Assembly: GCA_045646945.1 (NCBI GenBank)
Contig: JAZRLS010000017.1
Span: 4,201-68,200, forward strand
Source of the DNA: Eubacteriales bacterium
Lineage (GTDB): Bacteria > Bacillota > Clostridia > Oscillospirales > CAG-272
Reading direction: 5' to 3'
Length of the DNA stretch: 64,000 bases
Positions 23,229 to 56,150 of this stretch are shown piece after piece. A model generated the notes under the pieces. That model worked only from the letters and a program-made list of their open reading frames with translations. It did no database searches and was not told where the DNA came from. The position numbers and the translations under genes were made by a program. Positions within the stretch are counted from its first letter, which is position 1. Each line of letters starts with the position of its first letter.

Positions 23229-24386
23229 TTAATTTTCATTGTGTAAGTGCGCTAATTCAAGTTTGAAGTCCTCATAAGATCGTGCCTCAGACTCGAGTGC
23301 CTTTGCCACCGCATCGGCCTTATGATTTTCTATAATATCAGTCAGTTTGTCTGCAAAACGCCCGTAGCCGTCCTCTCCGAAAAACTCACTTGCATGCGCA
23401 TAATACATCGGGATATTCAATCTCTTGTGAAGCAAATCGTGCGCTTTGCTTTCATATTCCTCACTACAATATCCAGATGTGTCAATCGACAGGACGGGCA
23501 ATCCGTTTTTCAGTCCAAAGATGGTGCCATGGAAGTAATCAGTTACCAGACAGTGGCCGTACTGAAATACCTTTGCCCATTCAAAGGGATTCAGATTGTG
23601 CAGATAGAGATCTGCATATTTATTTCCGTCCATGAGCGCCACAATCTGATACTCTTCTCCGAAATACCTTTTAACGAAATCTCCGTATTCGGGATGCATC
23701 AACATAACAAACACTGTTTTTTTGTTGAAATCAAATTTCAGCTTCTTCATTTTTCGCTTCAATTTCATTTCATCAAAATTCAGATCGAGGAAAATAGACG
23801 GGTCACAGTTGTGCTGAGCCACATCGACATCCAACACAGAAGCAACAAAGTGCGCTGTATTATCGTCGCGCACCCCAATATAGGAAAAGTCCTTCAGTGC
23901 GTTTTTTAAATATTCCTGCTGATTCTTGTCAACGGAATAATATCTTTGCAGATGGGCGCTTGCAGCATACGACATTTTCTTGACGCCATGCACGTTTCCC
24001 AAAAAATACGGGCTCGGCAAGCCAATATCGTTCCAGTTAAACACCGCATCGCTTCCAACAATAATCACGTCATAATGCGCGGACATATATGCCTCAATTT
24101 TCTCAGTTGAGCAACCGAGAAAGGTTTTGCTTCTTTTCAACAAAGGCATGCAGCAGCGGAATTCTTTGGTTTGAACAAATTTTTTAATGCCTTCGGCGAT
24201 GCTTCTGCGATACAGGAAAACAAGCGGGCACTTATACACGAAAATTTCTCTCTTAATATGGTTATAATCAATAATGTCAACCGTATCTTTAGAGAAATCC
24301 TCCTGTACTCTTTTTTGCAAGGAATATGCCTGCATGACAGCCCCGTAGTTGATCGCTCTATGATATGTCAGTATTCCAATTCTCAT
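23229..24386 (-). CDS. Polysaccharide pyruvyl transferase family protein
   Basis: N-terminus MRIGILTYHRAINYGAVMQAYSLQ is typical of the family. Confidence 0.75.
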   Translation of the reverse strand: MRIGILTYHRAINYGAVMQAYSLQKRVQEDFSKDTVDIIDYNHIKREIFVYKCPLVFLYRRSIAEGIKKFVQTKEFRCCMPLLKRSKTFLGCSTEKIEAYMSAHYDVIIVGSDAVFNWNDIGLPSPYFLGNVHGVKKMSYAASAHLQRYYSVDKNQQEYLKNALKDFSYIGVRDDNTAHFVASVLDVDVAQHNCDPSIFLDLNFDEMKLKRKMKKLKFDFNKKTVFVMLMHPEYGDFVKRYFGEEYQIVALMDGNKYADLYLHNLNPFEWAKVFQYGHCLVTDYFHGTIFGLKNGLPVLSIDTSGYCSEEYESKAHDLLHKRLNIPMYYAHASEFFGEDGYGRFADKLTDIIENHKADAVAKALESEARSYEDFKLELAHLHNEN

Positions 24387-24390
24387 ATCG

Positions 24391-25581
24391 TTACCCCTTT
24401 TCTCTTAATAGGCTTTGTTCAATGATAAACACTCCGGCAAGCATAAAATAGCCGCCGCTTACGACAAATCCTGCGTTTGTAAAATTCAGAATGAACAAGG
24501 AAAGTTGCAAAAGTAACGATACCTGTACATATGCCGAAGTGGCCTTGAGTTTTTTATAATGAAACACGAGCCAGAGCGGTGAAAAATACCAAGCAAGATA
24601 ACACAGCGCAAACAATCCGCTCTGCGCCAAGAGTCCGGGATACACCGCATGGACATATATGCCGTTGGCGGTAAGCTTTCCCCATCCAACACCGAACACT
24701 GGGTTAGTAAGGAATAAGTCAAACTGTCTGCCGACCTCCTCTCCACGATAGAGGATGGAATCGTCGCTGGAAAAAATGTTGGCGAATCGCGCCCGCATTT
24801 GTTCAAATAGCTTGCCAAAGAACTCCGGTGCGAAAAATGCTATGACAAACAAAGCGACGATAACAAAGCAAATCATGCGCAATGCTCCAAAACTGTTTTG
24901 TTTTGCCTTTTTTCCAAAGGATGACAGGAAGATAAAGAAAAAGATAGCCGCGCACAGAACCCATCTCGTTCTGGAAAACGACAGAAATACAATGATGAAT
25001 CCGCAAACCAGTGTAACATAAAGCAGCAGTGAGCTGATTCCGTGTTCGGTTTTGTTACTGTTAAAAATTAAAACACTCGCAACAATCAAGCCACATACGC
25101 CAAAGGTACTGTTGACAGCACCTGCGGCTCGGACAAAATTACCGTCCGCTGCCCAGATTCCCACATCCAACACGCCGATGGAAACCAGAATTGATACAAT
25201 GGCCGCACCAACAGATGCCACTGCCAGTATTTTTACATATGTGGATGGTTTAATATTTGTTGTCCGCACCCACACATAAACAGCCATAGGCATTAGAAAG
25301 AAAGATGCATCCGTGAGAAAAGCACTTGTGTTTGTCCAATTCGCTATGGTCACCAAAACGGAGAACAACACATACACCAAAAGACCGATATCCCTCGGGC
25401 GAACCTTACGGCGCATTAAACAATCAAACACAAATATAAACAAAGAAATTCCAATGAATGAGAAAAACAGAAGAACGTCTAAATTGTACCCGCCAATTGA
25501 GGCACTGAAAATAGGCATTTTAAAAGTAAAAATCTGTTTGATAACAACAATTGTACCAAAGATAAAATATAGCTTTCTCAT
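24391..25581 (-). CDS. wzy: Wzy-type polymerase / O-antigen ligase-like membrane protein
   Basis: 396 aa with about 10 TM segments and one larger loop. Glycan-locus context. Confidence 0.6.
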   Translation of the reverse strand: MRKLYFIFGTIVVIKQIFTFKMPIFSASIGGYNLDVLLFFSFIGISLFIFVFDCLMRRKVRPRDIGLLVYVLFSVLVTIANWTNTSAFLTDASFFLMPMAVYVWVRTTNIKPSTYVKILAVASVGAAIVSILVSIGVLDVGIWAADGNFVRAAGAVNSTFGVCGLIVASVLIFNSNKTEHGISSLLLYVTLVCGFIIVFLSFSRTRWVLCAAIFFFIFLSSFGKKAKQNSFGALRMICFVIVALFVIAFFAPEFFGKLFEQMRARFANIFSSDDSILYRGEEVGRQFDLFLTNPVFGVGWGKLTANGIYVHAVYPGLLAQSGLFALCYLAWYFSPLWLVFHYKKLKATSAYVQVSLLLQLSLFILNFTNAGFVVSGGYFMLAGVFIIEQSLLREKG

Positions 25582-26711
25582 AATATTCCTCGTCTTATCG
25601 CATCAGCCAAAGCGGTTACTCTTTCTTCATACTTCAAATCGCGAGAATATTGCTTTACATTATCTCTGTATGTCTGATAATCCATCTTCATCTTCAACGC
25701 CGACTTATCAAAGTGGTCCGAAGAAACTCCAATTCCATAAGATTCACACAGTCTCTTGAGCGGAGGATTTTCAGAGCACAAAATAGGACAGCCTTCAAAC
25801 AAGCTCTCGTACAACTTTCCGGAAGCACAATACAAAGTATTGTAGCTGTCCTTATCAAAGACAACCACGCTTGCCTGAACGTTTTTCATACAATACCGCA
25901 GTTCCGCTCTTGAGATAAAGCCGATATAAAAGATGTTTTGCGCCCCCGTGGTTTTGAGCAACTCCTCATATTTTTTGTAGGCCACCGCAGATGCCGTGCC
26001 TGCGATCACCAGATTATACTCAGGTCCCAGCTTCAGAAAATCATTGATATAGTCAAAGGTCTGTCTTTCCTCGCTGATGCCCCCACCAAACAGAATGTTG
26101 AATTTTCCGTCAATGATCTTCCCGTCAAATTTTTGTTTGCAGGCTATCTCGTCATAATCATCGTCAATTCTGTGCATATTGTCAAATACCAAGGGAACGG
26201 ATTTCAATCCAAAATAGTCTTTCATGATATTTGCTCTCTCAATATTTGCAGCAAATACCAAATCCACGTCTTTCAGATATTTTTTCTCGCAGATCGGTCT
26301 GAATTTACTCAAAGCAGACTTCAACCAAAGAACAATTCCATCGGAGCCGAAAAAGTTCTTCTTCTTGAAATCCCCGGCCTTAATATAAAGTTCACTAGAA
26401 TCATACACGATTTTGGCGTTCGGATGCTTTTTTCTGATTTTCGGAATGAGTGCGGAACAATCGTTGTCATGCAAAACCACAATGTCAGGCTTAACCTCAT
26501 CAATTGTTTTCATCGAGGTTCGCAAAAAGTTAAACAACGCAAACGGGGATTTCTTATCAATAATATGGGAACGAACATTCTCAAAGCCGACTGGTAGCGC
26601 ATAAGATACGAAATCCACTTCGCCAAGCATCGTGCAGCATTCCAAAAACTCCTTGCTTCGCGCTTCTGAATTTACGTTATGATAAACAGCAAATACAATT
26701 TTCTTTTTCAT
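25578..26711 (-). CDS. Glycosyltransferase, GT4-like
   Basis: GT-B layout with a C-terminal YESLFEGCPIL (EX7E-type) motif. Confidence 0.7.
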   Translation of the reverse strand: MKKKIVFAVYHNVNSEARSKEFLECCTMLGEVDFVSYALPVGFENVRSHIIDKKSPFALFNFLRTSMKTIDEVKPDIVVLHDNDCSALIPKIRKKHPNAKIVYDSSELYIKAGDFKKKNFFGSDGIVLWLKSALSKFRPICEKKYLKDVDLVFAANIERANIMKDYFGLKSVPLVFDNMHRIDDDYDEIACKQKFDGKIIDGKFNILFGGGISEERQTFDYINDFLKLGPEYNLVIAGTASAVAYKKYEELLKTTGAQNIFYIGFISRAELRYCMKNVQASVVVFDKDSYNTLYCASGKLYESLFEGCPILCSENPPLKRLCESYGIGVSSDHFDKSALKMKMDYQTYRDNVKQYSRDLKYEERVTALADAIRRGIL

Positions 26712-26722
26712 TTTCTAATTTT

Positions 26723-27841
26723 TTATTTCGCGTCAGGGGCATCCATAATCGCCCGCAAAATAGCCTCCTCCGTTTGTTTGTTTTCTTGCATAGACCGTTG
26801 AACAACATCTGATGCAAATGCATCATACTTGCCTGCATCTAAAGAACGGTACCAGTCGAACAGAGTGTTTAAATTGGTCGTCTTTTCAAGGTCCAAAGCA
26901 TACGCATAATCCCCACTGACTTCTTGCATGATTGTATTGGGGCTCACCAATAACGGGCGACGGTACAGCGCGCCGTCATAGTATTTATTGGAAATGGCGT
27001 ACTTCACCAGCGGTCTATCGTTGCCATAACAATTAAACACCAGATTGGATTGCTCATAAATACGAGGCTTGTCGCTGGGTACGAACGGACCTTTCATTAG
27101 CACTCTGTTGCAATAAAGCTCATTGACATAATCCGTTATAATGCCAGATTCATCGTTGCCGTAAAAATGAAATTCAAACCGAGGATCGGAACGGACAAGA
27201 TCAATCAATCGTTTGCATTGCTCCGGATATCCGATACTTCCAATATAAGAGATTACAATCGGCTGGGTTTCATTGTTTACAGATACGGGGGCGTCATATC
27301 CGCCCGCGATATTGTGACACAAATGATACTCCGCTTCAGGCAAAAACGTTCTGAAGCCTGGGGAAGAAATTACTCTTACCGCCGCATTCTTTAGGACTTT
27401 TGTTTCGATCTTAAAGAAGGACTTCACATGCTCGTAGGTATAATCTCTGACATCGGAGATATAGCGTCCCGCATATTTTGAGGAAAGAAAATTCGCAAGC
27501 AGAATACCCGGCATTGTTGGTACAACAATCAGAAAATCAAATTTCTCCCGCTTGATGATAGCGATCGCCCGCCTTTTGAAACGTTGGAAATTGACAAATT
27601 TCAACACCTTGGAAGAATCGTTCCCCCTGGTTCCAATCCAAGAGACCGAAAGAAACTGTTCGTCTTTTACTTCGTTCAAATCCTTATATCGGTCAAAATA
27701 AATAACTTTATATTCCGCGTCTTTCAACCTGGAAATCGCATCTGTGTAGAATTTCAGATACGGTGAATATCTCAAATTGGAAAAAAGAACAATTCCTATT
27801 TTCTTCTTGTTCTTTTTTGGGATCATATCACTGTTATTCAT
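26723..27841 (-). CDS. Putative glycosyltransferase (GT-B-like), family uncertain
   Basis: 372 aa in the glycan locus with an alternating beta/alpha-like pattern. No diagnostic motif recognised. Confidence 0.45.
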   Translation of the reverse strand: MNNSDMIPKKNKKKIGIVLFSNLRYSPYLKFYTDAISRLKDAEYKVIYFDRYKDLNEVKDEQFLSVSWIGTRGNDSSKVLKFVNFQRFKRRAIAIIKREKFDFLIVVPTMPGILLANFLSSKYAGRYISDVRDYTYEHVKSFFKIETKVLKNAAVRVISSPGFRTFLPEAEYHLCHNIAGGYDAPVSVNNETQPIVISYIGSIGYPEQCKRLIDLVRSDPRFEFHFYGNDESGIITDYVNELYCNRVLMKGPFVPSDKPRIYEQSNLVFNCYGNDRPLVKYAISNKYYDGALYRRPLLVSPNTIMQEVSGDYAYALDLEKTTNLNTLFDWYRSLDAGKYDAFASDVVQRSMQENKQTEEAILRAIMDAPDAK

Positions 27842-27874
27842 TCGCTTCTTTCCTTTCCTTTGCTTTAGCCTTGA

Positions 27875-29062
27875 TTATTTACTTGCTGTGTTTTCCAATG
27901 TGTAGATATATTTCTCCGCATTGGCTTTTGAAAACATCTTTCGCAATTTCTCTCGCTTTTCGGAGCAATCCTGTGCGCTTGAATCCTTCATCAATGCAAT
28001 TGTGTTTGCCAACTGAAGATCATCATCGCAGTCAACCGCATAAATATCATCCTGCTCGGAAATCAAATCAAAAAATTTTGAATTTCTGTCAATGCAGAAC
28101 AAAATGGGGGGCTTTGTCCGAAGGCATGTTGCGGTTTTGCTGGGAAGAGCAGTGAAAATTCCACCCCTTGACAAAGGAATGATATTCACATTTGCTTGCG
28201 CATATAAGCTTTCTGCATAGCAAGCGGGCTGCAACGGTAAAAACGTAATGTTATTCAGGTTCTTTGTCATTTCCACGATGTTGCTTTTGTTCGCTCCTTC
28301 GCCAATGATGAAAAAGTGAACCGATCTGTCTTCTGCCAATCTTTGTGCTGCTCTTGCTACAATTTCCACATTCTGCATTTTTCCGATATTGCCCGCATAC
28401 AAGACATTATACTGTCCATTGTCCATCATAATGTTTTTCACTGCGGTGGAATCCATGTCCTCCAAACTAATGGGCTCGTCGGAATAACTCCAGTTATAAA
28501 CAACATCAACTTTATTTTCATCAACGCCTTGCTCTAGAAGTGTGCACTTCATATCATCCGATATCGTTATGATTTTGGTTGCCTTACGATACGCATATTT
28601 TTGCAATTTACTTAGTATCGGATACGAAAATTTGGCAACCGGCAATTGATTGGAAAACATCAAATTTTGAGGGAAAATATCCTGAACGTTAAAAACAATC
28701 GGACACTTTAAACACTGCAACGCCCTCATGTAAAAAGCTGCTGCGTTACACGATTGCAAAAACACAACGTCGTATTTTTTTTTGCGAAATGTCTTTTTGC
28801 ACTTCCAAGCATAAGACATTTCACTCATATATCTATTCAAAAAACTCGTTTTTTTGTTATCGGCATCAGAAATCAACGTATATCCAAACGCTTCGTAATC
28901 AAGAAAGTCCAACGGAACCTTGTCCAATGTTCCCCCGGTATCTTTTAAAATCACGTCTACCGTATGCCCTTGATTCAACGCTTGACGAATTACGTCTTGC
29001 AGGAGATGAACAGACGGACCTCCTCTGTCAAATCCAATATTTAACCAGAACAAAAATTTCAT
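27875..29062 (-). CDS. Glycosyltransferase family 4 (WbuB-like)
   Basis: FLFWLNIGFDRGGPSVHLLQDV and C-terminal ...PSKTATCL... resemble WbuB-type L-FucNAc transferases. Start is ATG 29062 or TTG 29077. Confidence 0.7.
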   Translation of the reverse strand: MKFLFWLNIGFDRGGPSVHLLQDVIRQALNQGHTVDVILKDTGGTLDKVPLDFLDYEAFGYTLISDADNKKTSFLNRYMSEMSYAWKCKKTFRKKKYDVVFLQSCNAAAFYMRALQCLKCPIVFNVQDIFPQNLMFSNQLPVAKFSYPILSKLQKYAYRKATKIITISDDMKCTLLEQGVDENKVDVVYNWSYSDEPISLEDMDSTAVKNIMMDNGQYNVLYAGNIGKMQNVEIVARAAQRLAEDRSVHFFIIGEGANKSNIVEMTKNLNNITFLPLQPACYAESLYAQANVNIIPLSRGGIFTALPSKTATCLRTKPPILFCIDRNSKFFDLISEQDDIYAVDCDDDLQLANTIALMKDSSAQDCSEKREKLRKMFSKANAEKYIYTLENTASK

Positions 29063-29105
29063 TGTTTTTTCACCCAATTATTCATTCTAAAATGGTTCTC
29101 GATCA

Positions 29106-30278
29106 TTAATAATTTGTGCCAAAAACCTTGTTGATACATGTAATGGTAGCACTTCCGCCGTATTCCATATGGCCATCCTTCAACTCTTTGGTTTTTTGAC
29201 ATTCCTTCTCATAATCCATCGAACGTATATGATTAATCACTGCCTCTTCGGTACGAATAACACCATTGGGAATCACCTTTTCCATATCAAAATAGAAATC
29301 CCGAACGGCTTTGTATTCTTCGTAATCATATCCAAAGCAGATCAACGGTTTTTCCAAAATAGAATAATCAAGCAAAATACAGGAATAATCGGAAATCAAA
29401 ACATCCGCAGCAATCATAAGCTCATTTACACTCGGATAGTCGATACAGTTTCGAACAAAATCGTCAAACTCAACATTCATCAGTTTGGTTGTATACGGAT
29501 GTGTTCTAAGCAACACAACATAATTGTCTCCAAGTTGCTCTCTCCATTTATCCCAAGTAATAGGAGGAGCCAACTTAAAGCTTGCACCACCATCGTTGCT
29601 TTCTCTCCACGTAGGTGCATACAGTATAACCTTTTTGTCTTTAGGAATATTTAATTTTTCTCTTATGGCTTGCTGTTTTTCTTTCGTTACACCATACAGA
29701 TCGTCATTTCTCGGGTAACCGGTTTCAATAATTGCTTGAGGAAGAACATTGAAATCACGAATAATAAAACCCCTCTCATATTCTCCATTAATACAAAAAT
29801 AATTTATATGTTCAAAATGAAAATCGTTTCTTCCACTTACTGCATTTCCAACGTAATTTAAACTAGCGCCGTGCCAAGTATTCAAATATACAGTCTTTTT
29901 CTTTTTGAAATGAAGTGCTCGTTCAATATTTACACAAGAAATCCAATATTTAGCCTTCAATGCCGTAATGAAATACTCCAATGTATCCATTTTAATTTTT
30001 TTCGCATTTGGGATATCATATTTTTCGGGTTCTTTTAATGCCCAAACAACACGATACTGTTCAAGCATACCAAGCTCGCTCATTTTATCAAAAATAGCTT
30101 TTGGACTATCATTAAAACGAAAACCATGTCCGTTCATCAAAACCAAATTTTCATCGATTTTCACAAACAAGCCCAAAAATCTAAATACCGCACTCATAGT
30201 ATAGCGATAGGTTGTTTGAATTACTCTATTATGTTTCAACAAATGCTCTAATCTTTTTTTCACATTCATCTTGATCAC
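29106..30278 (-). CDS. CDP-glycerol glycerophosphotransferase family (TagB/TagF-like)
   Basis: NTWHGASLNYVG and VILYAPTWRE motifs. Confidence 0.8.
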   Translation of the reverse strand: MIKMNVKKRLEHLLKHNRVIQTTYRYTMSAVFRFLGLFVKIDENLVLMNGHGFRFNDSPKAIFDKMSELGMLEQYRVVWALKEPEKYDIPNAKKIKMDTLEYFITALKAKYWISCVNIERALHFKKKKTVYLNTWHGASLNYVGNAVSGRNDFHFEHINYFCINGEYERGFIIRDFNVLPQAIIETGYPRNDDLYGVTKEKQQAIREKLNIPKDKKVILYAPTWRESNDGGASFKLAPPITWDKWREQLGDNYVVLLRTHPYTTKLMNVEFDDFVRNCIDYPSVNELMIAADVLISDYSCILLDYSILEKPLICFGYDYEEYKAVRDFYFDMEKVIPNGVIRTEEAVINHIRSMDYEKECQKTKELKDGHMEYGGSATITCINKVFGTNY

Positions 30279-30287
30279 CTCATCAGT

Positions 30288-31151
30288 TTATGTAAACTCT
30301 ATATCACATACAGATTTATCAAAGCTATCGTTATTTTGAAATACACAGTATTCAAAATTGTGAAGCTCAGTATTTTTATAAATTAAAGTGCCAAACCCCT
30401 TTTTTGCTATAGAAAAGAAAGGACGAAGCAAAAACACCCCGCAGCCAAGCAAAACGCTGAGGTACAATTTCTTGTTCAATTTGACCGCAATGCTCTTTGC
30501 CATATCGATTGTTTGTACATATTCCTTGTTTTGAGGATAGAACCGACCACAAAGTTCTCTATCGATACAAAGTTTAACAAAAGAAGATAAATTATCGATA
30601 TAAATCATACTTCTCTCATTCTTGATTTTTGGAAAAACAGGGAATTTTTTCACAAGCTTTACCACCGTTTGATAATTCCCTTTACATCCATTACCGTACA
30701 CCATTGGAGGGCGAAGAATACATACCTTAAAGTTGTTGTCCGAAAGATTCTCAATCCCCCATTCAGCTTGAAGTTTGGATTTTCCGTAATTGCTCTTTGG
30801 GGCAGGAACAGTGTCCGCTGTAATAACACCCATATCTATGCCATAAACACTCATAGAACTCAAAAAGACAAATTGCTTTACGCCATCATTTTTAGCCTTA
30901 GTTGCAGTCTCTATTGCCAAATCACGATTGATTTTATAATAAAGCTTTGCATTTTGAGAAGTTTCTTTTTGATGCGCAATCCCAGCTACGTGAAAGATGG
31001 TATCATATTCCGAGAAGCTCTTGGTTCTCCAACTCCCATCGATCATATCAACGGTATCTACTACATAGTCGTTGGAATAATTCTCTTTGATGTATCTTTC
31101 AAATGAAGTTCCAATGTAGCTATTTGCGCCAGTAATCAATATTTTTTTCAT
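30288..31151 (-). CDS. NAD-dependent epimerase/dehydratase (short SDR)
   Basis: ILITGANSYIG Rossmann motif and YGKSK catalytic motif. 4-nt overlap with the upstream sugar transferase. Confidence 0.8.
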   Translation of the reverse strand: MKKILITGANSYIGTSFERYIKENYSNDYVVDTVDMIDGSWRTKSFSEYDTIFHVAGIAHQKETSQNAKLYYKINRDLAIETATKAKNDGVKQFVFLSSMSVYGIDMGVITADTVPAPKSNYGKSKLQAEWGIENLSDNNFKVCILRPPMVYGNGCKGNYQTVVKLVKKFPVFPKIKNERSMIYIDNLSSFVKLCIDRELCGRFYPQNKEYVQTIDMAKSIAVKLNKKLYLSVLLGCGVFLLRPFFSIAKKGFGTLIYKNTELHNFEYCVFQNNDSFDKSVCDIEFT

Positions 31152-31792
31152 TTTGTAACCGTTTCTTCTTCCGTTTCTTCTTCCTTTTTTCCCTGCTTCT
31201 TCATTTCACCCGTACCGCCTTCCACTACACCGTCGGATTTAAGTACGGATTTGATGGTTCCAAAGAAGCATTTACAGTCGAACGCAAAGCTCATCTTTTC
31301 TACGTATTCGCCGTCAAGCTTCGCCTTCACGGGAATTTCAAGTTCATCGCGACCGTTAATTTGCGCCCAACCGGTCAATCCGGGCTTAACGTCATTGGCA
31401 CCGTATTTGTCACGCTCAGCAATCAAATCATCCTGATTCCAAAGAGCCGGTCGAGGTCCGATAATGCTCATTTTGTTGAACAAAATATCATACACCTGCG
31501 GAAGCTCATCCAAACTTGTTTTACGAAGGAATTTTCCGACACGCGTAATATATTGTTCCGGATTTTCAAGCAAATGCGTAGGAATATCCGGCGTTTTCAC
31601 TTTCATACTACGGAATTTATGTAACCAAAACAGTTTCTTGTTTTTTCCCACTCTTTTTTGTTTAAAAATGATGGGACCCGGATCATCGATGACAATTGCA
31701 ATAGAAACAATGAGAAAGATCGGTAATAGGAAAACACCGCCCAAAAAAGACAGCACAACATCAATAAGTCTTTTCAAAAAATGTCTATACAT
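31148..31792 (-). CDS. Small monotopic phosphoglycosyl transferase (PglC/WbaP C-terminal type); initiating enzyme
   Basis: LKRLIDVVLSF...DDPGPIIFKQKRVGKN...FRSM...LDELPQ...GPRP. Acidic and basic C-terminal tail KKQGKKEEETEEETVTK. Confidence 0.85.
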   Translation of the reverse strand: MYRHFLKRLIDVVLSFLGGVFLLPIFLIVSIAIVIDDPGPIIFKQKRVGKNKKLFWLHKFRSMKVKTPDIPTHLLENPEQYITRVGKFLRKTSLDELPQVYDILFNKMSIIGPRPALWNQDDLIAERDKYGANDVKPGLTGWAQINGRDELEIPVKAKLDGEYVEKMSFAFDCKCFFGTIKSVLKSDGVVEGGTGEMKKQGKKEEETEEETVTK

Positions 31793-31833
31793 CTCTAAAC
31801 TCCATCCTCAAAACAATATTTAAAAAACAAGCC

Positions 31834-32361
31834 TCACAATTTTTCGGTGGCAAACACCGTTCCACACATAACCTTGGTTTTTGAAGGAACATTCATATAT
31901 CCCGCAACCGTTGCATTACAATCAATATGGGTTCCGTCGCCAAGCGTACTGACATGATTTACCACAGCTCCTGCGGAAATCAAGCATCCTTTTCCCAACA
32001 CACACCCGGTGTGTACAACAGCCATCGGCTCAATGATACAGCCTTTACCGATCTCTGCCGAGGAAGAAACGTAAGCCAAAGGCGATACCAAGGTTGCAAT
32101 CTGCATTGTGGCTTCAGACTCAAGCTTTTGTAATAACCGTAAGCGAATCTCAGGATTCCCAATAGCGACAACGACGTTCGGAAAATCAGAACTTAAATGC
32201 TTCATATCCGCTATTTTTCCCACAACGGCACTACCGTCAGGAGCCACTTTCGCTTGATCATCCACAAATTTAATTTTATCGAAACAACGCATACTCTCGG
32301 CAATTTCCTTTGCAACAAGAGAATACGTTCCCGCACCAACAATCAGCAAATTCTTGTTCAT
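31834..32361 (-). CDS. NeuD/PglD-family sugar acetyltransferase (hexapeptide repeat)
   Basis: N-terminal LLIVGAGTYS Rossmann-like motif plus C-terminal left-handed beta-helix repeats. Start set to ATG 32361, with AAGGAG upstream. The track start is a TTG. Confidence 0.75.
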   Translation of the reverse strand: MNKNLLIVGAGTYSLVAKEIAESMRCFDKIKFVDDQAKVAPDGSAVVGKIADMKHLSSDFPNVVVAIGNPEIRLRLLQKLESEATMQIATLVSPLAYVSSSAEIGKGCIIEPMAVVHTGCVLGKGCLISAGAVVNHVSTLGDGTHIDCNATVAGYMNVPSKTKVMCGTVFATEKL

Positions 32362-40084: not shown

Positions 40085-40128
40085 AAAAGAAAAGTACCCA
40101 AAAGAAAACAGCACGAATTATTTATTGT

Positions 40129-40308
40129 GTCGCCGTATTTCTCTGTGCAGACTTCGGCTTTCTGAGGAACAAAACCGTTGGACCCTACGTCCCAACGGTT
40201 TTGGGATGCGATTTTATTAAAACTATCTTTGCAAAAAATTGAAAGTTTTTGAGTTTCTTAAGAACTTTTTTCAAAAAGTTCTTACGTGGGGTGTGGGGCA
40301 AAGCCCCG
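40129..40308 (+). repeat. Multi-hairpin intergenic repeat, copy A
   Basis: About 180 nt that aligns with 55156..55325 in the same orientation. Hairpins at 40171..40202, about 40257..40285 and about 40288..40318. Confidence 0.8.
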
Positions 40309-40410
40309 CAATACACCCAATAGCACCCGAAAGGGTGAATTTCTGTTTGCAACGCAAACAGAAAGAGGGAAAACCACAAGTGGGGTTTTCCCTTTCCTTT
40401 TCCTAATTTT

Positions 40411-45606: not shown

Positions 45607-46939
45607 GAGACGCACCCTCCTTTTCTTTTTGTTCTTTTTGTTTTTGCTGATATGCGCGAAGCTTTCCCTTGGCTAAGCGGTTCATCTGCACGAGATTTCG
45701 CTTGGCGGGACAGATATACGAGCAACAGCCGCACTCCATACAGAGATTGACCTTGAGCTTTTCGAGCGATGCGTCGTCGCCCTGCTCGAACGCCTTTGCC
45801 ATCTCGACGGGAGAGAGTCCAAAAGGACAGGTGTCAAGACATTTGCCGCAACGGATACACGCCGTTTCTCTGGGCGGTGTTGCCTCCTTCTCGCCAAGAG
45901 CAAGCACCGCATTGGTCTGCTTTAAGATCGGAGCGTCCAGATCAACGAGTGCCACCCCCATCATCGGTCCGCCACTGAGAATTTTCTTGGGTGGTTCGGC
46001 AAATCCGCCGCAAGCGTCAAGCACGTCACGCACCGACGTTCCGATCGGAACGATTAAATTTTTCGGGAACTTGACCGCCGAACCGTCGACCGTCACGCAT
46101 TTTTCGACAAGCGGCATGCCCGTGCGGAGATATTTGGCGATCGAAGCGAGCGTGGTGCAATTGACGACGATCACGCCTGCATCGAGCGGGAGCTTGCCCT
46201 CACCGATCACGCGTCCCGTCGTGTGATAAACGAGCACCTTTTCACCGCCCTGCGGATAGAGCGACGGAAGCGCACGGACGAGAACACCCGACATCGATGC
46301 GGTTGCTCGCTTCATTTCCGCGATACATTCGGGCTTGTTTTTTTCAATTCCGAAAATCGCGTTCGGAATCGATAAGTATTTCATTACCTGAGAAAGTCCC
46401 TCACAAACCAGCTCGCTTTCATCGAGCATCGTGCGCGTATCCGAAGTAATGTAGGGCTCGCACTCGGCACCGTTGACCACGACGGTATCGACGCGCCCCT
46501 CGGGCACGTTCAGCTTGACTACAGTGGGAAATCCCGCGCCGCCAAGACCGACGATACCGCTCTCGCGCACTGCCGCAAGAAAGCTCTCTTTGTCGTGCAC
46601 CTCGGGGGGGATAAGTCCCTCTGCGGGTGTCTGCTCCCCGTCACATTCAATGACCACGGCACGCATTTTCGCGCCCGTAGATGCGGTGATCTCATCGATT
46701 TTTTTCACCTTTCCCGAAACGCCCGAATAGATGGGCGAAGAAAGTCCCGCGCCAGCCTCGGCGATCTTCTGACCGACGCGCACCTCGTCTCCGACCGCTA
46801 CGCACGGCACGGCAGGCGCGCCGATGTGCATCGACATCGGAAGCGTAATGCTCTTTGGTACGGGCATCGGCTCAGGCTTCATTTTTGCCGTATTTTTATG
46901 GTGCTTCAAGTGCACTCCGTGAAGTCCAAATAGTGGCAC
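45599..46939 (-). CDS. rnfC: Rnf complex subunit C (NADH-binding, 2x[4Fe-4S])
   Basis: GLGGAGFPT plus CIRCGKCLDTCP and CMECGCCSYICP. GTG start, 6 nt after GGAGG. Confidence 0.9.
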   Translation of the reverse strand: MPLFGLHGVHLKHHKNTAKMKPEPMPVPKSITLPMSMHIGAPAVPCVAVGDEVRVGQKIAEAGAGLSSPIYSGVSGKVKKIDEITASTGAKMRAVVIECDGEQTPAEGLIPPEVHDKESFLAAVRESGIVGLGGAGFPTVVKLNVPEGRVDTVVVNGAECEPYITSDTRTMLDESELVCEGLSQVMKYLSIPNAIFGIEKNKPECIAEMKRATASMSGVLVRALPSLYPQGGEKVLVYHTTGRVIGEGKLPLDAGVIVVNCTTLASIAKYLRTGMPLVEKCVTVDGSAVKFPKNLIVPIGTSVRDVLDACGGFAEPPKKILSGGPMMGVALVDLDAPILKQTNAVLALGEKEATPPRETACIRCGKCLDTCPFGLSPVEMAKAFEQGDDASLEKLKVNLCMECGCCSYICPAKRNLVQMNRLAKGKLRAYQQKQKEQKEKEGASRG

Positions 46940-47043
46940 GTTCCACCTCCAAAAACAATTTTAAATAAAGTAAAAATTAATATATATTTATTATAACATA
47001 TATATATTTTTCTTGTCAACTTTTGTTTATTTCTTCACAAAGT

Positions 47044-48348: not shown

Positions 48349-48780
48349 ATGTTTGATCTGATACCCTTTGGCAACCGATTTTTTGCTACCTACGACCCGT
48401 TCAAGGAATTCGAAGAAATGGAGCGCCGTTTGTTTGCGCCCGTCACGCCCGCGATGAAGACCGATATTCGCGAAACCGATGACGCATATATTCTTGAAAC
48501 CGATCTGCCCGGATTCTCCAAGGAGGAAATCCACGCAGAAATCCGCGACGGTGTGCTGACGCTCCGCGCAGAACACAAAAAGGAATCCGACGACAAGGAC
48601 GAAAACGGAAAATATCTCCGCCGGGAGCGCTCCTACGCATCCTACGCGCGCCGTTTCTCTCTTGACGGAATCCAAGCCGATGCCATCTCCGCCGCATTCC
48701 GCGACGGTGTGCTGACGCTGACGCTTCCCAAGGAAGCACCGAAGCAGGCAGACGAAGGTCGCAAGCTCGAAATTCAATAA
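48349..48780 (+). CDS. Hsp20/alpha-crystallin small heat-shock protein
   Basis: DIRETDDAYILETDLPGFSKEEI...GVLTL...LPK. Start set to ATG 48349, after GAAGGAGG. Confidence 0.9.
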   Translation: MFDLIPFGNRFFATYDPFKEFEEMERRLFAPVTPAMKTDIRETDDAYILETDLPGFSKEEIHAEIRDGVLTLRAEHKKESDDKDENGKYLRRERSYASYARRFSLDGIQADAISAAFRDGVLTLTLPKEAPKQADEGRKLEIQ

Positions 48781-48791
48781 GTTCGCACAAA

Positions 48792-48819
48792 AAGCGGCGG
48801 CTCGTCTGAGCCGCCGCTT
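48792..48819. terminator. Bidirectional terminator shared by hsp20 and the LRR gene
   Basis: AAGCGGCGGCTC, loop GTCT, then GAGCCGCCGCTT. Confidence 0.85.
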
Positions 48820-48829
48820 GTGTTTTCCC

Positions 48830-50449
48830 TTAAGAATTGCTCGGAACGTAGTTAAAATGTACCGTTGCGCCACTCGGCAGATATGCTTCCGCCGCGTCAA
48901 TCTCCGCCCATTCTTCTTCCGTGCCCATAAAATAAATATCCGTCAGCGCGCTACATCCGTAAAAGCTAAACGCACCGATACTTGTCATACTTTTCGGGAT
49001 CACGATGCTCGCAAGAGAGACGTTTTCTGCCCACGTCCACGATCCGATCTGCTCAACACCGTCACCAAGAACGATCTCACGAAGTGATCCGCAAAGGAAA
49101 AAGACCTCGTTTTCAACAACGGAAAGGTTCTTGGAAAGCACAGCGCGCGTCAGAGCATCACAGGAGCTGAATGCCGCCACACCAACGCTCGTCACAGTGT
49201 CCGGCAGTTCGACCTCAGCGAGACGGGCGCAACCCAAAAAGGCTCTGAGACCAATGCTTTCAAGGCTCTCTCCCAAGGAGAGTGTTTCTAATTTCTTACA
49301 TTCGCGGAACGCATAATTACCGATGCTCTTTCCCCCCCTGCCGAGCGTCACGCTCGTCAGCGAAGCGCATTTTTCAAACGCACTATCCCCGATGGTAAGA
49401 ACGCTGTCCGAAAGCACGACACTCGTCAGCGCGTCATAGCCAAGAAACAACGTCGCACCGATCGCCGTAACACCGTCCGGAACGGTCAACTCGGTCACAA
49501 GCTCGCCATTCAAGCAAAAATTCTCGGCATAACGCAAGGGATTGGACTCCGAATTGCCGAATTCAATCGAAAACCACGCAGCAAGATCGGTCACGTTGAC
49601 CGTCTCCAAACGATTGCAGTAAGAAAACGCAGACAAGCCGATTTTTTTGAGTCCCTTGGGAAGTGTGATCTCTGTCAGCTTTTGGCAATCCAAAAAAGCA
49701 GAGCCCCCTATTTCTTCAATGCTGTCGGGAAGTTTGATCTTCGTCAATTGATTACAGCCGTAAAAAGCAGAGTCTCCAATCACCGTACCGCCCGTCACTT
49801 CGATCTCGGTCAGTGCCGTGGGCAAGGAAGAGGAATTTTTGGAAGCAGAGATCGCACCGAAAATATAGCCGAGATGCATATTTTTCGTTCCATCCTTCGT
49901 TTCCCCGATAAAGGGAAGCTTAAGGCTCGTCAATTTATCACAGCCCGCAAACGTGCTCTTTCCGATGCTCGTCACTCCGGCGGGAATTTCAATGCTCTCT
50001 AAGGCAGAGCAATGATAAAATGAATACATTCCAATGCTTCTCACACTGTCAGGCAGCGTGACCGATTTCAGTTTTGCACACTCCTGAAATCCCATATTTG
50101 CGACCGCCGTGACCGCCTTTCCCTCGTAGGTTGCGGGAATCACGATGGTTTCCGCGTTCTTCATCGTACCGACCGCCACCGCATAAGTATCGTCGTTCTG
50201 TAAGCGGAATTCAAGCTCTCCCGCAGGCTCCGGCTCACTCGGTGTCTCCCCCGGATTCTCTTCCTCGGGAGACGGTACTTCCGGCGTGTTATCGTTTTTA
50301 TCGTCGGGAGGGACAATGCTTTCGCTTGTTTTCTCCGTATCGGACGTTGTTTCGATTTCCGCAGACTCTTCGCTGTTACACGACATCAGTAAAACAGACA
50401 GCATAGCAAAACAAAGGAAAAGCGAAAAATATTTTTTCCATACTTTCAT
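48830..50449 (-). CDS. BspA-type leucine-rich-repeat surface lipoprotein
   Basis: Lipobox LLMSC, a P/E/T-rich linker, then about 14 repeats of the IPxxVTSIGxxAFxxCxxLxxI type. Confidence 0.85.
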   Translation of the reverse strand: MKVWKKYFSLFLCFAMLSVLLMSCNSEESAEIETTSDTEKTSESIVPPDDKNDNTPEVPSPEEENPGETPSEPEPAGELEFRLQNDDTYAVAVGTMKNAETIVIPATYEGKAVTAVANMGFQECAKLKSVTLPDSVRSIGMYSFYHCSALESIEIPAGVTSIGKSTFAGCDKLTSLKLPFIGETKDGTKNMHLGYIFGAISASKNSSSLPTALTEIEVTGGTVIGDSAFYGCNQLTKIKLPDSIEEIGGSAFLDCQKLTEITLPKGLKKIGLSAFSYCNRLETVNVTDLAAWFSIEFGNSESNPLRYAENFCLNGELVTELTVPDGVTAIGATLFLGYDALTSVVLSDSVLTIGDSAFEKCASLTSVTLGRGGKSIGNYAFRECKKLETLSLGESLESIGLRAFLGCARLAEVELPDTVTSVGVAAFSSCDALTRAVLSKNLSVVENEVFFLCGSLREIVLGDGVEQIGSWTWAENVSLASIVIPKSMTSIGAFSFYGCSALTDIYFMGTEEEWAEIDAAEAYLPSGATVHFNYVPSNS

Positions 50450-50476
50450 GTCGTTCGTTCTCCTGACAAGTATCGC

Positions 50477-51763
50477 TTAGTTTTTCGAAAGATAGGTTTC
50501 GGTGATCAACGCTTCCAGTGCAATCGTATATTTCATATTATCTTCTTTCGAGGGATGGCCCCACGAGGGTGCTCCGCCGGGCACCGACGAGCCCGCTAAC
50601 TGAAGCGTATAGATCTTCGCGTTCGGATTTGATTGCTTGTAGGTCGAGATAGCGGTATTGACGTGATAGCTGAATCCGTCACCCATCGCACCCCACAGAC
50701 AGTACACGACGCAGTCCTCGCCGTGCTTCTCGAAGATCTGTCCGAGCAGTGCCGCATATGCCTCACGGTAGGTTGCCATATTCGCGTGCTGACCAACGTC
50801 GTTCGTGCCGAGATTGATCACCACGATATCCGCCTGTCTTGCAAAATCATATTCCGCTTCGGTCGTGCGCATCGGACTTGCGTGCAGATAGTTGTCCTTG
50901 AAATTGGGATTTCCAACCACCATTCCCTTTCCCGAGAGTGCCGTGATCGAATAATCGGCACCGAGGCGCTGAGAAACAAGATACGGATACGCAAGCGTTC
51001 CGTCCTGATCCGCCCAGTTACCCGTATGGTTTCCGATCACGCCCCATCCACAGCTAATGCTGTCGCCGAGGTATTCGATGTAAAGCTCATTCTTTGCGGG
51101 AGCTGTTTCGCTGATCGTACCGTCGAGCGTTACCGACGACACACTCGCCTGCGCGATGGTATATCCCGTCACCTTGATCAGACGGATGGTATGCGTTCCT
51201 GCGGGAACGTCCTTCAGCTCAACGACCGTATCATTCGTTCCCACCGTAAAATAGCTCGACGTTCCGTTCTTCCAAAGAAGTCCGTTGACGTATGCCTTGA
51301 AATAGCAAAGCGCATTCGATTTTGCAACGAAGGAAACGTTCGATTTGGTGTTCAGATCGGCATTAAACTCAATGCCCGCGCCCGTCCAGTCCATCGTGAT
51401 ACAGCCGTCCACCTTCAAGTGACGCTCTCCAAGCACCTTAATGCCCGCCGTTTCTTCGTTCAGTTCATAGGTACGAAGCTCCGAGGGGCGCGGATACGAG
51501 GGTTCGGCAGGCTCGTTGGGCTGCTCGGGGGTATTCGGCGCGTTCGGAGTATTCGGCTCATTTGGTTCCTCCGGGCTCGGCTGATTCTGCTCGTCGGGCG
51601 TGTTCGGAGTATCATCGTTTTTCTCTGCCGTCGTGGTACTCGACGTCTCATCCGATACCGCTTCGGTCACTGCCTCAGGCTCGGTTGCCCCTTGACAAGC
51701 AGTCAATATGCTCAAAAAAAGCATACAAAGCACCATAAAAAGTGAAAGTGTCATTTTTTTCAT
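50477..51763 (-). CDS. SGNH/GDSL hydrolase lipoprotein, carbohydrate esterase family 2-like
   Basis: Lipobox ILTAC and a P/N/E/T-rich linker. Jelly-roll-like N-domain (MDWTGAGIEFNA), then YLGDSISCGWG and VINLGTNDV blocks. Start set to ATG 51763, after AGGAG. Confidence 0.75.
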   Translation of the reverse strand: MKKMTLSLFMVLCMLFLSILTACQGATEPEAVTEAVSDETSSTTTAEKNDDTPNTPDEQNQPSPEEPNEPNTPNAPNTPEQPNEPAEPSYPRPSELRTYELNEETAGIKVLGERHLKVDGCITMDWTGAGIEFNADLNTKSNVSFVAKSNALCYFKAYVNGLLWKNGTSSYFTVGTNDTVVELKDVPAGTHTIRLIKVTGYTIAQASVSSVTLDGTISETAPAKNELYIEYLGDSISCGWGVIGNHTGNWADQDGTLAYPYLVSQRLGADYSITALSGKGMVVGNPNFKDNYLHASPMRTTEAEYDFARQADIVVINLGTNDVGQHANMATYREAYAALLGQIFEKHGEDCVVYCLWGAMGDGFSYHVNTAISTYKQSNPNAKIYTLQLAGSSVPGGAPSWGHPSKEDNMKYTIALEALITETYLSKN

Positions 51764-51811
51764 TGAAAACTCCTTTTTAGAAAAGATTTTTTGGGCATAA
51801 TATCCTAAAAT

Positions 51812-51842
51812 ATTATACCCCCCCCCCCGCATTTTTTGTCAA
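51812..51842 (-). promoter_or_regulatory. Consensus promoter with a G11 homopolymer in the spacer
   Basis: Minus strand reads TTGACA (51842..51837), AAAAATGC plus G11 (19-nt spacer; C11 at 51818..51828 on the plus strand), then TATAAT (51817..51812). Confidence 0.7.
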
Positions 51843-51875
51843 TACTTTTTATCAATATTTTTTATTTTTTTACAA

Positions 51876-51905
51876 AAACAGCCAAGCGAAAACGCTTGGC
51901 TGTTT
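51876..51905 (-). terminator. Terminator of the G1P-dehydrogenase-like gene
   Basis: AAACAGCCAAGCG, loop AAAA, then CGCTTGGCTGTTT, followed by a T-run on the minus strand. Confidence 0.85.
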
Positions 51906-51910
51906 GATTT

Positions 51911-53209
51911 TTAATCAGCAAGAATCTCTGCCGCTTCCTTTTCACCGCAGAAGATGGCATCGTAGAGCCAGAGCACCGAGTAACGGTCCTTGAGGTCCTT
52001 CGCGAACCATACGCCGTTCTGGATCTTCTTTCTTCCGTACTGCTGCTCGAAGAGAGAAAGATCGAAGTCGCAGTCGGTCAGCATCGTGGCGATCTCATCG
52101 GCGGTCGGGCATTCGTTGAGAATTGCGCGAACCTCTGCCCACTTTGCCTTGTAAATGTCGTTGACGGGGTGATCGTATCTGCCCGCCTCGTTCTGCAGGT
52201 CGCGGATCTCAGTCCACAGATGGCTGTAGATCTTCTGATAGCACTTTTCTCTCGTTTCCTTCGAAAGCTCAGAGAAGGTCGGCTCCTCGAGTGCGCGAAC
52301 TTCCTCACGAAGCTTTGCCGTAACGATGGTTGCGTATCCGACGTCGGTTCCGTGGAAGAAGAAGGGCTCGCCGTAAATCAGACCCGTGATCTCGAAATAG
52401 TGCGACAGGTGGTGCTCACTGCCCGAGCCGGGACGCGTCGAATTGACGAGAGTCAGGCACGCACCGATGAGTACGAGGTCGAGCATCAGCTCTTCAATTG
52501 CTTCGGGCTTGCGGTCGCGAATGTCGGTTGCGAGCGAACGAATGAGGTTGGTGCGATCCATCACGAGATCGTAGATCTCCTGACAGAAATATTCGTTATT
52601 GATCAGCGCGCTGAGCTTCCAGTCGCAGAGTGCGCTGTACTTACCGATGATATCGGCATATCCCGAACGGATCATTCCGATCGGAGCGGCACAAAGAATG
52701 TCGGTATCACCCATAATCAGGGTCGGTGCGTGCGTGGTTGCCGTCACCTTCATTCCCTTCAGAATCATTGCCGCACCCGACGATGCGTAGCCGTCCATCG
52801 AGGGAGCTGTACCGATGATACCGCTCTCGATATGATGATAGAAGGAAACGTACTTACAAAGGTCGTTGATAACACCCGATCCAATACCGAGAATCAGGTC
52901 GGTTGCGTCAGTCAGACTCTGCTCGATCGCACCGATCGCCTGCTCGTTGGGAACGACGTGCGGCTCACCGGGCTCGGTGGTCAAGAGACAGAACTGCTCG
53001 ATCTTGTCACCGAGAAGCTCACGGACTCTCTCACCGCAAAGGGGATATGTATTTTCGTCGGCAACGAGTAAAATGTGGTTGTACTCTGCCAAGCATTCGG
53101 GAAGCTTAGCAAGCGCGTTCTTTTCCACCACAACGTGTGCGATGTCGCAACGGTGCGTTCTGCCGCAGCTGCAAACAATATCTTTATTCAACCAATCGTG
53201 AAGACTCAT
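51911..53209 (-). CDS. sn-Glycerol-1-phosphate dehydrogenase family protein (AraM/EgsA-like)
   Basis: GIGSGVINDL, TAPSMDGYASSGA and RPGSGSEHHLSHY align with my recollection of B. subtilis AraM. Start set to ATG 53209. Confidence 0.7.
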   Translation of the reverse strand: MSLHDWLNKDIVCSCGRTHRCDIAHVVVEKNALAKLPECLAEYNHILLVADENTYPLCGERVRELLGDKIEQFCLLTTEPGEPHVVPNEQAIGAIEQSLTDATDLILGIGSGVINDLCKYVSFYHHIESGIIGTAPSMDGYASSGAAMILKGMKVTATTHAPTLIMGDTDILCAAPIGMIRSGYADIIGKYSALCDWKLSALINNEYFCQEIYDLVMDRTNLIRSLATDIRDRKPEAIEELMLDLVLIGACLTLVNSTRPGSGSEHHLSHYFEITGLIYGEPFFFHGTDVGYATIVTAKLREEVRALEEPTFSELSKETREKCYQKIYSHLWTEIRDLQNEAGRYDHPVNDIYKAKWAEVRAILNECPTADEIATMLTDCDFDLSLFEQQYGRKKIQNGVWFAKDLKDRYSVLWLYDAIFCGEKEAAEILAD

Positions 53210-55062: not shown

Positions 55063-55155
55063 AATTACTCCTAATAGTTAGTTAAGGGTTGGATTTCTCT
55101 TCTTTCTTTCGGGAAAGAAAGAAGCAAAGAAAGCTTTCTCGAAGGAATGGATAAG

Positions 55156-55325
55156 GTCGCCGTATTGTCTGCACAGACTTCGGCTTTCTAAGGTACAAAT
55201 CCATCGGACACTACGTACCGATGGATTTGGGATGCGATTTTATTCAAAAATTCTTGTGTGAAGTTTTTGAGATTCGTAAGAACTTTTTCCAAAAAGTTCT
55301 TACGTGGGGTGCGGGGCAAGCCCCG
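55156..55325 (+). repeat. Multi-hairpin intergenic repeat, copy B
   Basis: Aligns with 40129..40308. First hairpin is at 55197..55228. Confidence 0.8.
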
Positions 55326-55331
55326 TAAACA

Positions 55332-56150
55332 TTAAAACATAATACGGTCGACGTCGTCGAGCGAGCCAAACGCAAAATCGGGCTTATCGGCATCTGCGGC
55401 GGCATCCACGTCCTCGGGTTGTGTTTCACCCGACAGAACGAGCACCGAGGTCACACCGAACTTCTTGCCGAGCGCAATGTCGGTATAAAGGCGGTCACCG
55501 AAAATGCACATTTCGTCATTCTTGAAGCCGGTCGCCTCTCCGATCATCTCAATGGTTTCCTTGTAGGGCTTGCCGAAATAGGTCGGCACCTTGCCCGTCG
55601 AAGCGGTCACGAGTGCGGCAATCGCGCCACTGTCGGGAATAAATCCGTTCTCGGTGGGGCAGTTGAAATCGGGGTGGGTGGAGAGATACTCCGCACCGCC
55701 GCGAATAAAGCGGCATGCCTGATTGAGCTTGTCGTAGGTCAGTGAGGTGTCGAAGCTGGTAATGACGATGTCCGCCTTCTCCTCGTCTCCCTTCAAAAGG
55801 TTGATGCCCTTGGCACGATACTCCTCGCAGAGCTCGTCGGTTGCCACAAGGTACACCGACTTTCCTGCGCGAAAACGCTTGAGGAATTCGAGCGTCACGT
55901 CACCCGAGGTCATAATCTCATCTGCGGCAGGCTCAAAGCCAAGGCGTGCGAGCTTTGCCTGATAGAAGGGCGTGGTGTGCGAGGCATTGTTGGTAAAGAA
56001 AAGCACCTTTTTACCGTTGGCACGAAGATTTTTGATAAAGCGGATGGCAAACGGAAAAGGATTCCCGCCAAGATAGATCGTACCGTCCATATCAAAGATA
56101 AACAGCTTTTTGTCCTTCAAAACATCGGTATTGGGATTCTGAAATTTCAT
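55332..56150 (-). CDS. HAD-IIA family hydrolase (NagD/YutF-like sugar phosphatase)
   Basis: LFIFDMDGTIYLG...FFTNNAS...GDRLYTDI. Confidence 0.85.
   Translation of the reverse strand: MKFQNPNTDVLKDKKLFIFDMDGTIYLGGNPFPFAIRFIKNLRANGKKVLFFTNNASHTTPFYQAKLARLGFEPAADEIMTSGDVTLEFLKRFRAGKSVYLVATDELCEEYRAKGINLLKGDEEKADIVITSFDTSLTYDKLNQACRFIRGGAEYLSTHPDFNCPTENGFIPDSGAIAALVTASTGKVPTYFGKPYKETIEMIGEATGFKNDEMCIFGDRLYTDIALGKKFGVTSVLVLSGETQPEDVDAAADADKPDFAFGSLDDVDRIMF

Follow-up and report, generated by a model that had tools for sequence, protein, structure and literature searches.

Within the window (i.e., the whole 64 kb stretch of DNA that was analysed), two lipoprotein genes lie on the minus strand, between the gene for an sn-glycerol-1-phosphate (G1P) dehydrogenase and a convergent HSP20 gene (Table 1). 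The upstream member of the pair encodes a CE2-like esterase, characterized by a lipoprotein signal peptide (...LSILTAC, with the lipobox LTAC), a Pro/Glu/Thr-rich linker and a GDSL/CE2 body. It matched the Pfam families PF13472, PF00657 and, more weakly, CE2_N, and among proteins of solved structure it is closest to CE2 esterases such as CelE of C. thermocellum (2wao). The second gene encodes a BspA-type leucine-rich-repeat (LRR) protein, whose lipoprotein signal peptide ends in the lipobox ...LLMSC. Both products contain long low-complexity linkers and are predicted to be surface-exposed lipoproteins, in keeping with what an earlier note on this DNA had supposed of the two downstream genes. 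The LRR gene starts 27 nt past the esterase stop codon with no terminator in between, which argues that the two genes are co-transcribed.

Table 1. Features at the lipoprotein operon and its promoter (window coordinates)
Feature	Position	Strand	Remarks
sn-Glycerol-1-phosphate dehydrogenase gene, 432 aa	51911..53209	-	Conserved anchor of the site
Intrinsic terminator hairpin (13-bp stem, 4-nt loop, T-run)	51876..51905	-	Ends the G1P dehydrogenase gene
A/T-rich upstream region with 13-nt tandem duplication ATATTGATAAAAA / GTATTGACAAAAA	51833..51865	-	
-35 hexamer TTGACA (predicted)	51837..51842	-	Read from sequence
Proximal spacer AAAAATGC, conserved	51829..51836	-	Sequence and lineage alignment
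G11 homopolymer (C11 on the plus strand)	51818..51828	-	Fills 11/19 spacer positions
-10 hexamer TATAAT (predicted)	51812..51817	-	Read from sequence; 19 nt from the -35 box
Overlapping TAATAT, -10 candidate at 17 nt in the G8 allele	51810..51815	-	Promoter scan
Ribosome-binding site AGGAG	51770..51774	-	6 nt ahead of the ATG at 51763
CE2-like GDSL carbohydrate esterase lipoprotein gene, 428 aa	50477..51763	-	Pfam, signal peptide
BspA-type leucine-rich-repeat lipoprotein gene, 539 aa	48830..50449	-	Own AGGAG
Bidirectional terminator hairpin	48792..48819		Ends the operon; common to the convergent HSP20 gene
HSP20 gene, convergent	48349-48780	+	

The deposited annotation contains a longer esterase CDS (P0001, 451 aa, 50477-51832, minus strand), which starts at an ATG at 51832, within the promoter spacer, and whose extension renders the G tract as Gly-Gly-Gly. 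The closest homologues that were read, as well as the alignment consensus, start with the MKK signal peptide; the upstream ATG is out of frame in the orthologous locus of the sister lineage (L001), due to a 4-nt difference; and AGGAG precedes 51763. On these grounds the 451-aa ORF was rejected as a gene-calling artefact. The model is very probably mis-started, the true esterase start being the MKK at 51763. A gene model that starts in the promoter and translates the tract is an annotation error typical of such loci.

Read on the minus strand, positions 51842..51812 correspond to TTGACA-AAAAATGC-G11-TATAAT. The earlier note had described this segment as two hexamers exactly matching the consensus, separated by a 19-nt spacer of which 11 nt are G, with AGGAG and the esterase ATG about 45-50 nt further downstream, and our own reading agreed on every count (the ATG lies 48 nt downstream of the -10 box). 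The second copy of the 13-nt duplication contains the -35 box, and the A/T-rich region to which it belongs may play a role similar to that of an UP element. Around the -35 box, the block AAAGTATTGACAAA[A/G]AATGC is unchanged across three lineages. Further upstream, the terminator hairpin of the G1P dehydrogenase gene (AAACAGCCAAGCG-TTTT-CGCTTGGCTGTTT, then a T-run) is conserved in L001, L047 and L059; judging from its sequence, it insulates the lipoprotein promoter from read-through. No other minus-strand promoter was found across 48500-52300 by a promoter scanner that accepted spacers of 16-18 nt.

Some additional elements were apparent. A perfect 7-nt inverted repeat, ATAATAT-N6-ATATTAT (51797..51816, minus strand), overlaps both the -10 box and the transcription start site (TSS), which is predicted near 51806-51804, and recurs unchanged in the sister lineage; this repeat may represent a candidate repressor operator, or it may have arisen by chance in A/T-rich DNA. 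Elsewhere in the window, perfect TTGACA/TATAAT promoters occur at 47019 (minus strand, 18-nt spacer) and 47054 (plus strand, 17-nt spacer), divergent within ~35 nt and adjoined by a TAACATATATATATTA tandem repeat (46978-47008).

The G11 tract is the sole G/C run longer than 7 nt in the window, the next longest runs (including those at 46604-46610 and 49332-49338) being of 7 nt. When 46 related loci (336 kb) were searched for G/C runs of at least 8 nt, none was found except at the orthologous site. At least four overlapping G8 matches, as contained in G11, arose in just one of 100 dinucleotide-preserving shuffles. Since the window contains no second long G/C tract, nothing in it hints at a genome-wide contingency-locus strategy.

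The spacing of the two hexamers is also rare. A perfect TTGACA-N19-TATAAT arrangement has an expectation of 0.01 per window. Sites with at least 10 of 12 hexamer matches were enriched in the window only at the 17-nt spacer (16 observed vs 2.75 in shuffled sequence). In a 501-kb set composed of the window and related Clostridia DNA, with some loci redundant, perfect hexamer pairs numbered 26 at 17 nt and 4 at 18 nt; the lone pair at 19 nt is the tract promoter of the window. The assumption of a 17-nt optimum, made in the earlier note, agrees with the promoters of this organism, which are strongly concentrated at that spacing.

The nearest genome to the window is the MAG RGIG9409 ("Clostridia bacterium", from yak caecum), with ~89% nucleotide identity and a syntenic locus; further relatives, retrieved by a genome scan, are MAGs recovered from gut samples, ruminant and other, under the name "Eubacteriales/Clostridia bacterium". 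In the RGIG9409 ortholog the tract flanks are identical and the promoter reads TTGACA-AAAAATGC-G8-ATAATAT, which the scanner called as TTGACA-17-TAATAT. The tract is carried by these two lineages only, as G11 in the window and as G8 in RGIG9409, at a divergence of ~11%. Their alleles are set apart by GGG plus a T, implying at least two mutational events rather than one slippage step. The G8 version was present in four RGIG9409 assemblies (NCBI, two from ENA, and Logan), which are 100% identical over 5-8 kb and therefore represent one strain. The Logan contig crosses the G8 tract unbroken, so that gross length heterogeneity is not visible there. The earlier note had proposed that related genomes be examined for heterogeneity in tract length; we could observe it between the two lineages, but not among the four assemblies of the sister strain.

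Three other lineages have a promoter at the site but no tract. L059, a third lineage, shares the -35 block AAAGTATTGACAAAGAATGC, with the tract replaced by TTTAAGCTG, and its TTGACA-17-TATAAT promoter precedes a different lipoprotein gene. At the same position, after the G1P dehydrogenase terminator, L062 has TTGACA-17-TATAAT and another lipoprotein; L055-58 have TTGACG-17-TATAAT followed by a 918-aa lectin/lipase protein and then by an LRR protein; and L047-51 and L063-64 have no cassette. Tract-free 17-nt promoters thus drive other surface-protein genes in three other lineages, two of these genes being for lipoproteins. Because the spacer is of 17 nt in all four related promoters at the site (RGIG9409, L059, L062 and L055-58), the 19 nt of the window must be due solely to the length of the tract. 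Loci reached through further members of the G1P dehydrogenase cluster (P0120, P0246, P0248, P0249, P0251 and P0253) had no tract and served for the 17-nt baseline.

These comparisons (window 48830-53209 vs L047-L064) identify the stretch that follows the G1P dehydrogenase terminator as a variable slot, next to a dehydrogenase that is itself 91-98% identical. The contents seen in the slot were the CE2 esterase plus LRR pair, a Cys-rich lipoprotein, the lectin/lipase 918-aa protein plus LRR, a Ser/Asn/Asp-rich lipoprotein, an AraC regulator plus an APH kinase, or nothing. Every filled slot has a near-consensus 17-nt promoter ahead of its cassette. By analogy with known systems, the surface-protein cassettes of the slot are of the gene class typical of contingency loci.

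Outside the tract, the promoter and 5'UTR (~80 nt) of the window and of RGIG9409 are distinguished by one substitution and one 1-nt indel, against dS values of 0.31-0.84 in four genes around the site. Such near-invariance of the flanks is indicative of a constrained, functional regulatory sequence, in which tract length is the only conspicuous change. The esterase and LRR genes are intact in both lineages, with dN/dS ratios of 0.155 and 0.233, respectively; these values point to an operon that is under purifying selection and has been abandoned in neither lineage, making its long-term silencing unlikely. The LRR protein, compared with its counterpart in the sister lineage (L052:6258-7871), shows 74.6% amino acid identity and a dS of 0.84, while neighbouring genes have dS values of 0.31-0.46, which suggests some recombination or diversifying pressure on this gene.

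The strain of the window is known from one assembly only (in the cluster look-up, one NCBI contig with a length of 72,895 nt), and the value of 11 for the tract length comes from that assembly. Exact-protein look-ups of five window proteins (the esterase in its 428-aa and 451-aa forms, the LRR protein, G1P dehydrogenase and HSP20) returned no second assembly of the strain, and two DNA-pattern scans of JGI metagenomes, using the promoter flanks with a variable gap, gave 0 matches. A protein search found no close relatives of the esterase besides the product of the window itself; its 92%-identical ortholog surfaced only through the genome scan, and neither the esterase nor the LRR protein of the sister lineage had an exact match in the protein collection searched. 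On the other hand, collinearity between the window contig and an independent assembly from a related strain extends right across the tract, which thus cannot be a chimeric join. Furthermore, RqcH and G1P dehydrogenase (the two flanking genes compared) are intact and have lengths within one residue of those in independent assemblies of relatives, an observation that disfavours a window assembly prone to homopolymer errors. Of the assembly artefact contemplated in the earlier note, therefore, a false join can be dismissed and the presence of a tract is backed by an independent lineage, whereas the exact count of 11 is the reading of one assembly.

Two further features of the window deserve mention. 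A structured intergenic element of ~180-280 nt is found upstream of the RqcH (NFACT) gene (window 55150-55335, minus strand), with a second copy, 81.5% identical, at 40120-40315 (minus strand) and orthologs at L001:416-700, L047:863-1141, L055:1460-1647 and L062:1453-1641. RNAalifold predicted several hairpins in this element, with pairing preserved despite two-sided changes in 12 of 48 pairs; Rfam gave no match to it, even at E<=1. A REP/MITE-like repeat is one possible identity, an undescribed RNA or leader another. A low-GC block at ~24000-32000 (0.37-0.42, compared with a window mean of 0.48) may have been horizontally acquired.

Promoter anatomy, the rarity of the tract, its differing length in the two lineages, the baseline of 17 nt, the conserved flanks and the intact genes are all matters of observation, and in our judgement, by a modest preponderance, they point to a slippage-prone expression dial acting on the lipoprotein operon, of the type of porA and tp0126. 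The sigma-A-type promoter would serve the CE2 esterase and BspA-like LRR operon of an uncultured ruminant-gut Clostridia lineage. The poly-G fills the distal spacer, such that tract length would set how far apart the -35 and -10 boxes lie: starting from the window allele, the spacer would be 17 nt with G9, 18 nt with G10 and 19 nt with G11. A weak or OFF state is predicted for the G11 allele, because its spacing is 2 nt beyond that of the organism's 17-nt promoters, while the perfect hexamers and the A/T-rich upstream region may still allow it to fire appreciably at 19 nt. Loss of one or two G would shorten the spacer to 18 or 17 nt and generate a strong promoter; the sister G8 allele, with TAATAT at 17 nt, is predicted to be ON. 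Slipped-strand mispairing at the tract would then provide a heritable but unstable dial on surface-protein expression. In this scheme, the position of the TSS, the influence of spacing on promoter activity, and how fast and how reversibly the length changes are inferred. A more demanding version, whereby the site is a true SSR contingency locus, with a hypermutable poly-G that stochastically dials the esterase/LRR operon in a cassette-swapping slot, seems to us possible and is put forward only tentatively.

The tract might instead be a fixed, lineage-specific indel, namely a mutational accident that left the window strain with a constitutive promoter, weakened or still adequate, and entails no change on an ecological time scale. 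Variation was indeed observed between lineages only, all four sister-strain assemblies have G8, the window has a single such tract, and intergenic indels are frequent at this divergence, the window and RGIG9409 being separated by 44 gap openings over 5.4 kb. However, G/C runs of 8-11 nt are intrinsically slippage-prone in all bacteria studied, as also seen for porA and in the T. pallidum data; furthermore, tract length is the only notable change in a promoter region that hardly varies otherwise, and purifying selection on the operon speaks against long-term silencing. We consider a fixed indel rather unlikely, though worth keeping in mind. Long homopolymers are a classic weak point of sequencing and polishing, and given that a single assembly represents the window strain, the tract could have been mis-called, the true sequence being ~G9-G10 in an ordinary 17-18-nt promoter with a G-rich spacer. 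This appears improbable: G8 occupies the same position in an independent lineage, so the tract itself is real; the lengths of RqcH and G1P dehydrogenase speak for a sound assembly; and reads of mixed length, if they existed, would themselves support phase variation.

Readings in which the 19-nt spacing or the surrounding DNA serves some other form of control fared worse. A 19-nt spacer between good hexamers is a hallmark of MerR-type promoters, and the perfect dyad over the -10 box and TSS is kept in L001, raising the prospect of a regulator-dependent promoter, either through MerR-like realignment of the spacer or with a repressor at ATAATAT-N6-ATATTAT as the main control. Yet the spacer AAAAATGC-G11 is devoid of dyad symmetry and no regulator gene is adjacent, and since the orthologous and homologous promoters are at 17 nt, the 19-nt spacing does not represent a conserved design. 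Chance could account for the A/T-rich 7-mer dyad, which in any case leaves the tract unexplained; altogether, we deem regulator-dependent control very improbable. Hardly credible, finally, is that the promoter belongs to an inverton, or that the tract lies within an RNA element or codes for part of the 451-aa ORF product. Inversion is a known mode of phase variation in Clostridia, but no inverted repeats flank the promoter (we found just the terminator hairpin and an 11-nt pair inside coding sequences) and no recombinase gene lies beside the locus. The inverton and MerR-type readings were accordingly rejected, the repeats that they require being absent. As for an RNA element, Rfam searches of the whole window at the gathering score, and of the promoter at E<=1, produced only chance, terminator-driven matches far below threshold. 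The coding alternative draws on the deposited model, which reads the tract as Gly codons, and is opposed by the homologue starts, the L001 frame and the position of AGGAG discussed above.

The mechanism proposed here is a textbook one and would only mildly surprise a specialist; what would be new, if switching were confirmed, is the host group. Work on phase variation in gut commensals has dealt almost exclusively with invertible promoters. In the literature that we searched, no slippage-type phase variation was described in Clostridia, but only DNA inversion; this agrees with the remark in the earlier note that such a promoter had not been described for this type of organism, although absence from that literature is not proof. 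If our preferred reading of a slippage-prone dial is correct, slipped-strand contingency loci would also exist in ruminant-gut Firmicutes, acting on glycan-esterase and adhesin-like surface proteins. On the more demanding version, that of a true SSR contingency locus, slipped-strand promoter switching, so far known from pathogens and Mollicutes, would extend to commensal fibre-degrading Firmicutes and would be tied to a hotspot of surface-protein diversification, possibly under pressure from, e.g., phages or host IgA. Once confirmed, the arrangement would offer a signature for screening MAGs, namely a G/C run of at least 8 nt between consensus hexamers.

Several known systems offer terms of comparison. 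The vlp genes of Mycoplasma hyorhinis, encoding lipoproteins of a wall-less relative of the Firmicutes, have a poly-A in the promoter spacer, while the fimbrial genes hifA/hifB of Haemophilus influenzae have TA repeats there. As we propose for the window, a simple spacer repeat controls surface lipoprotein or fimbrial genes through spacing; in those cases, however, the repeat is a poly-A or a dinucleotide and the genes form multi-gene families, as opposed to a single operon here. MerR-family promoters (19-20-bp spacers) resemble the window promoter in having good hexamers 19 nt apart, but their spacer contains a dyad operator and a regulator gene lies next to them, whereas the window has neither and its relatives are at 17 nt. 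The invertible promoters of Clostridioides difficile (flgB, cwpV, cmrRST and pdcB) generate ON/OFF heterogeneity of surface and signalling genes (PMC11868660; PMC8890394). Unlike what we envisage for the window, they depend on recombinase-driven, site-specific inversion between inverted repeats, and no such repeats occur at the window locus.

Parallels are also provided by the poly-G promoters of Treponema pallidum (tp0126, tprL and tprE/G/J), for which control through the tract is established in the cases of tp0126 and tprL (PMC7864442). In tp0126 the poly-G lies between the -35 and -10 boxes and expression is optimal with a 17-nt spacer, and T. pallidum tracts of 7-11 G vary within isolates (PMC7864442). 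As with the esterase gene of the window, the original annotation of the tp0126 ORF spanned the poly-G and hid the signal peptide (PMC7864442). T. pallidum is nonetheless a spirochaete pathogen with many tracts, for which there are measurements of both variability and reporter effect, whereas the window locus has been read as sequence.

The mechanism that the earlier note invoked for homopolymer spacers is well established in Neisseria: in the porA gene of N. meningitidis, 11G gives high expression, 10G a ~2-fold lower and 9G a ~13-fold lower expression (PMC3639595). The window promoter is similar to that of porA in that a G tract (9-11 nt in porA) lies within the spacer of a sigma-70-type promoter ahead of a surface-protein gene. 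It differs in its host, a monoderm, uncultured commensal of the gut belonging to the Clostridia, where the locus is known from its sequence, and in that this genome fragment contains no family of such tracts. As regards the predicted direction of switching, 11G corresponds to the optimal 17 nt in porA but to 19 nt in the window, where it is shortening of the tract, not lengthening, that is predicted to raise promoter strength.
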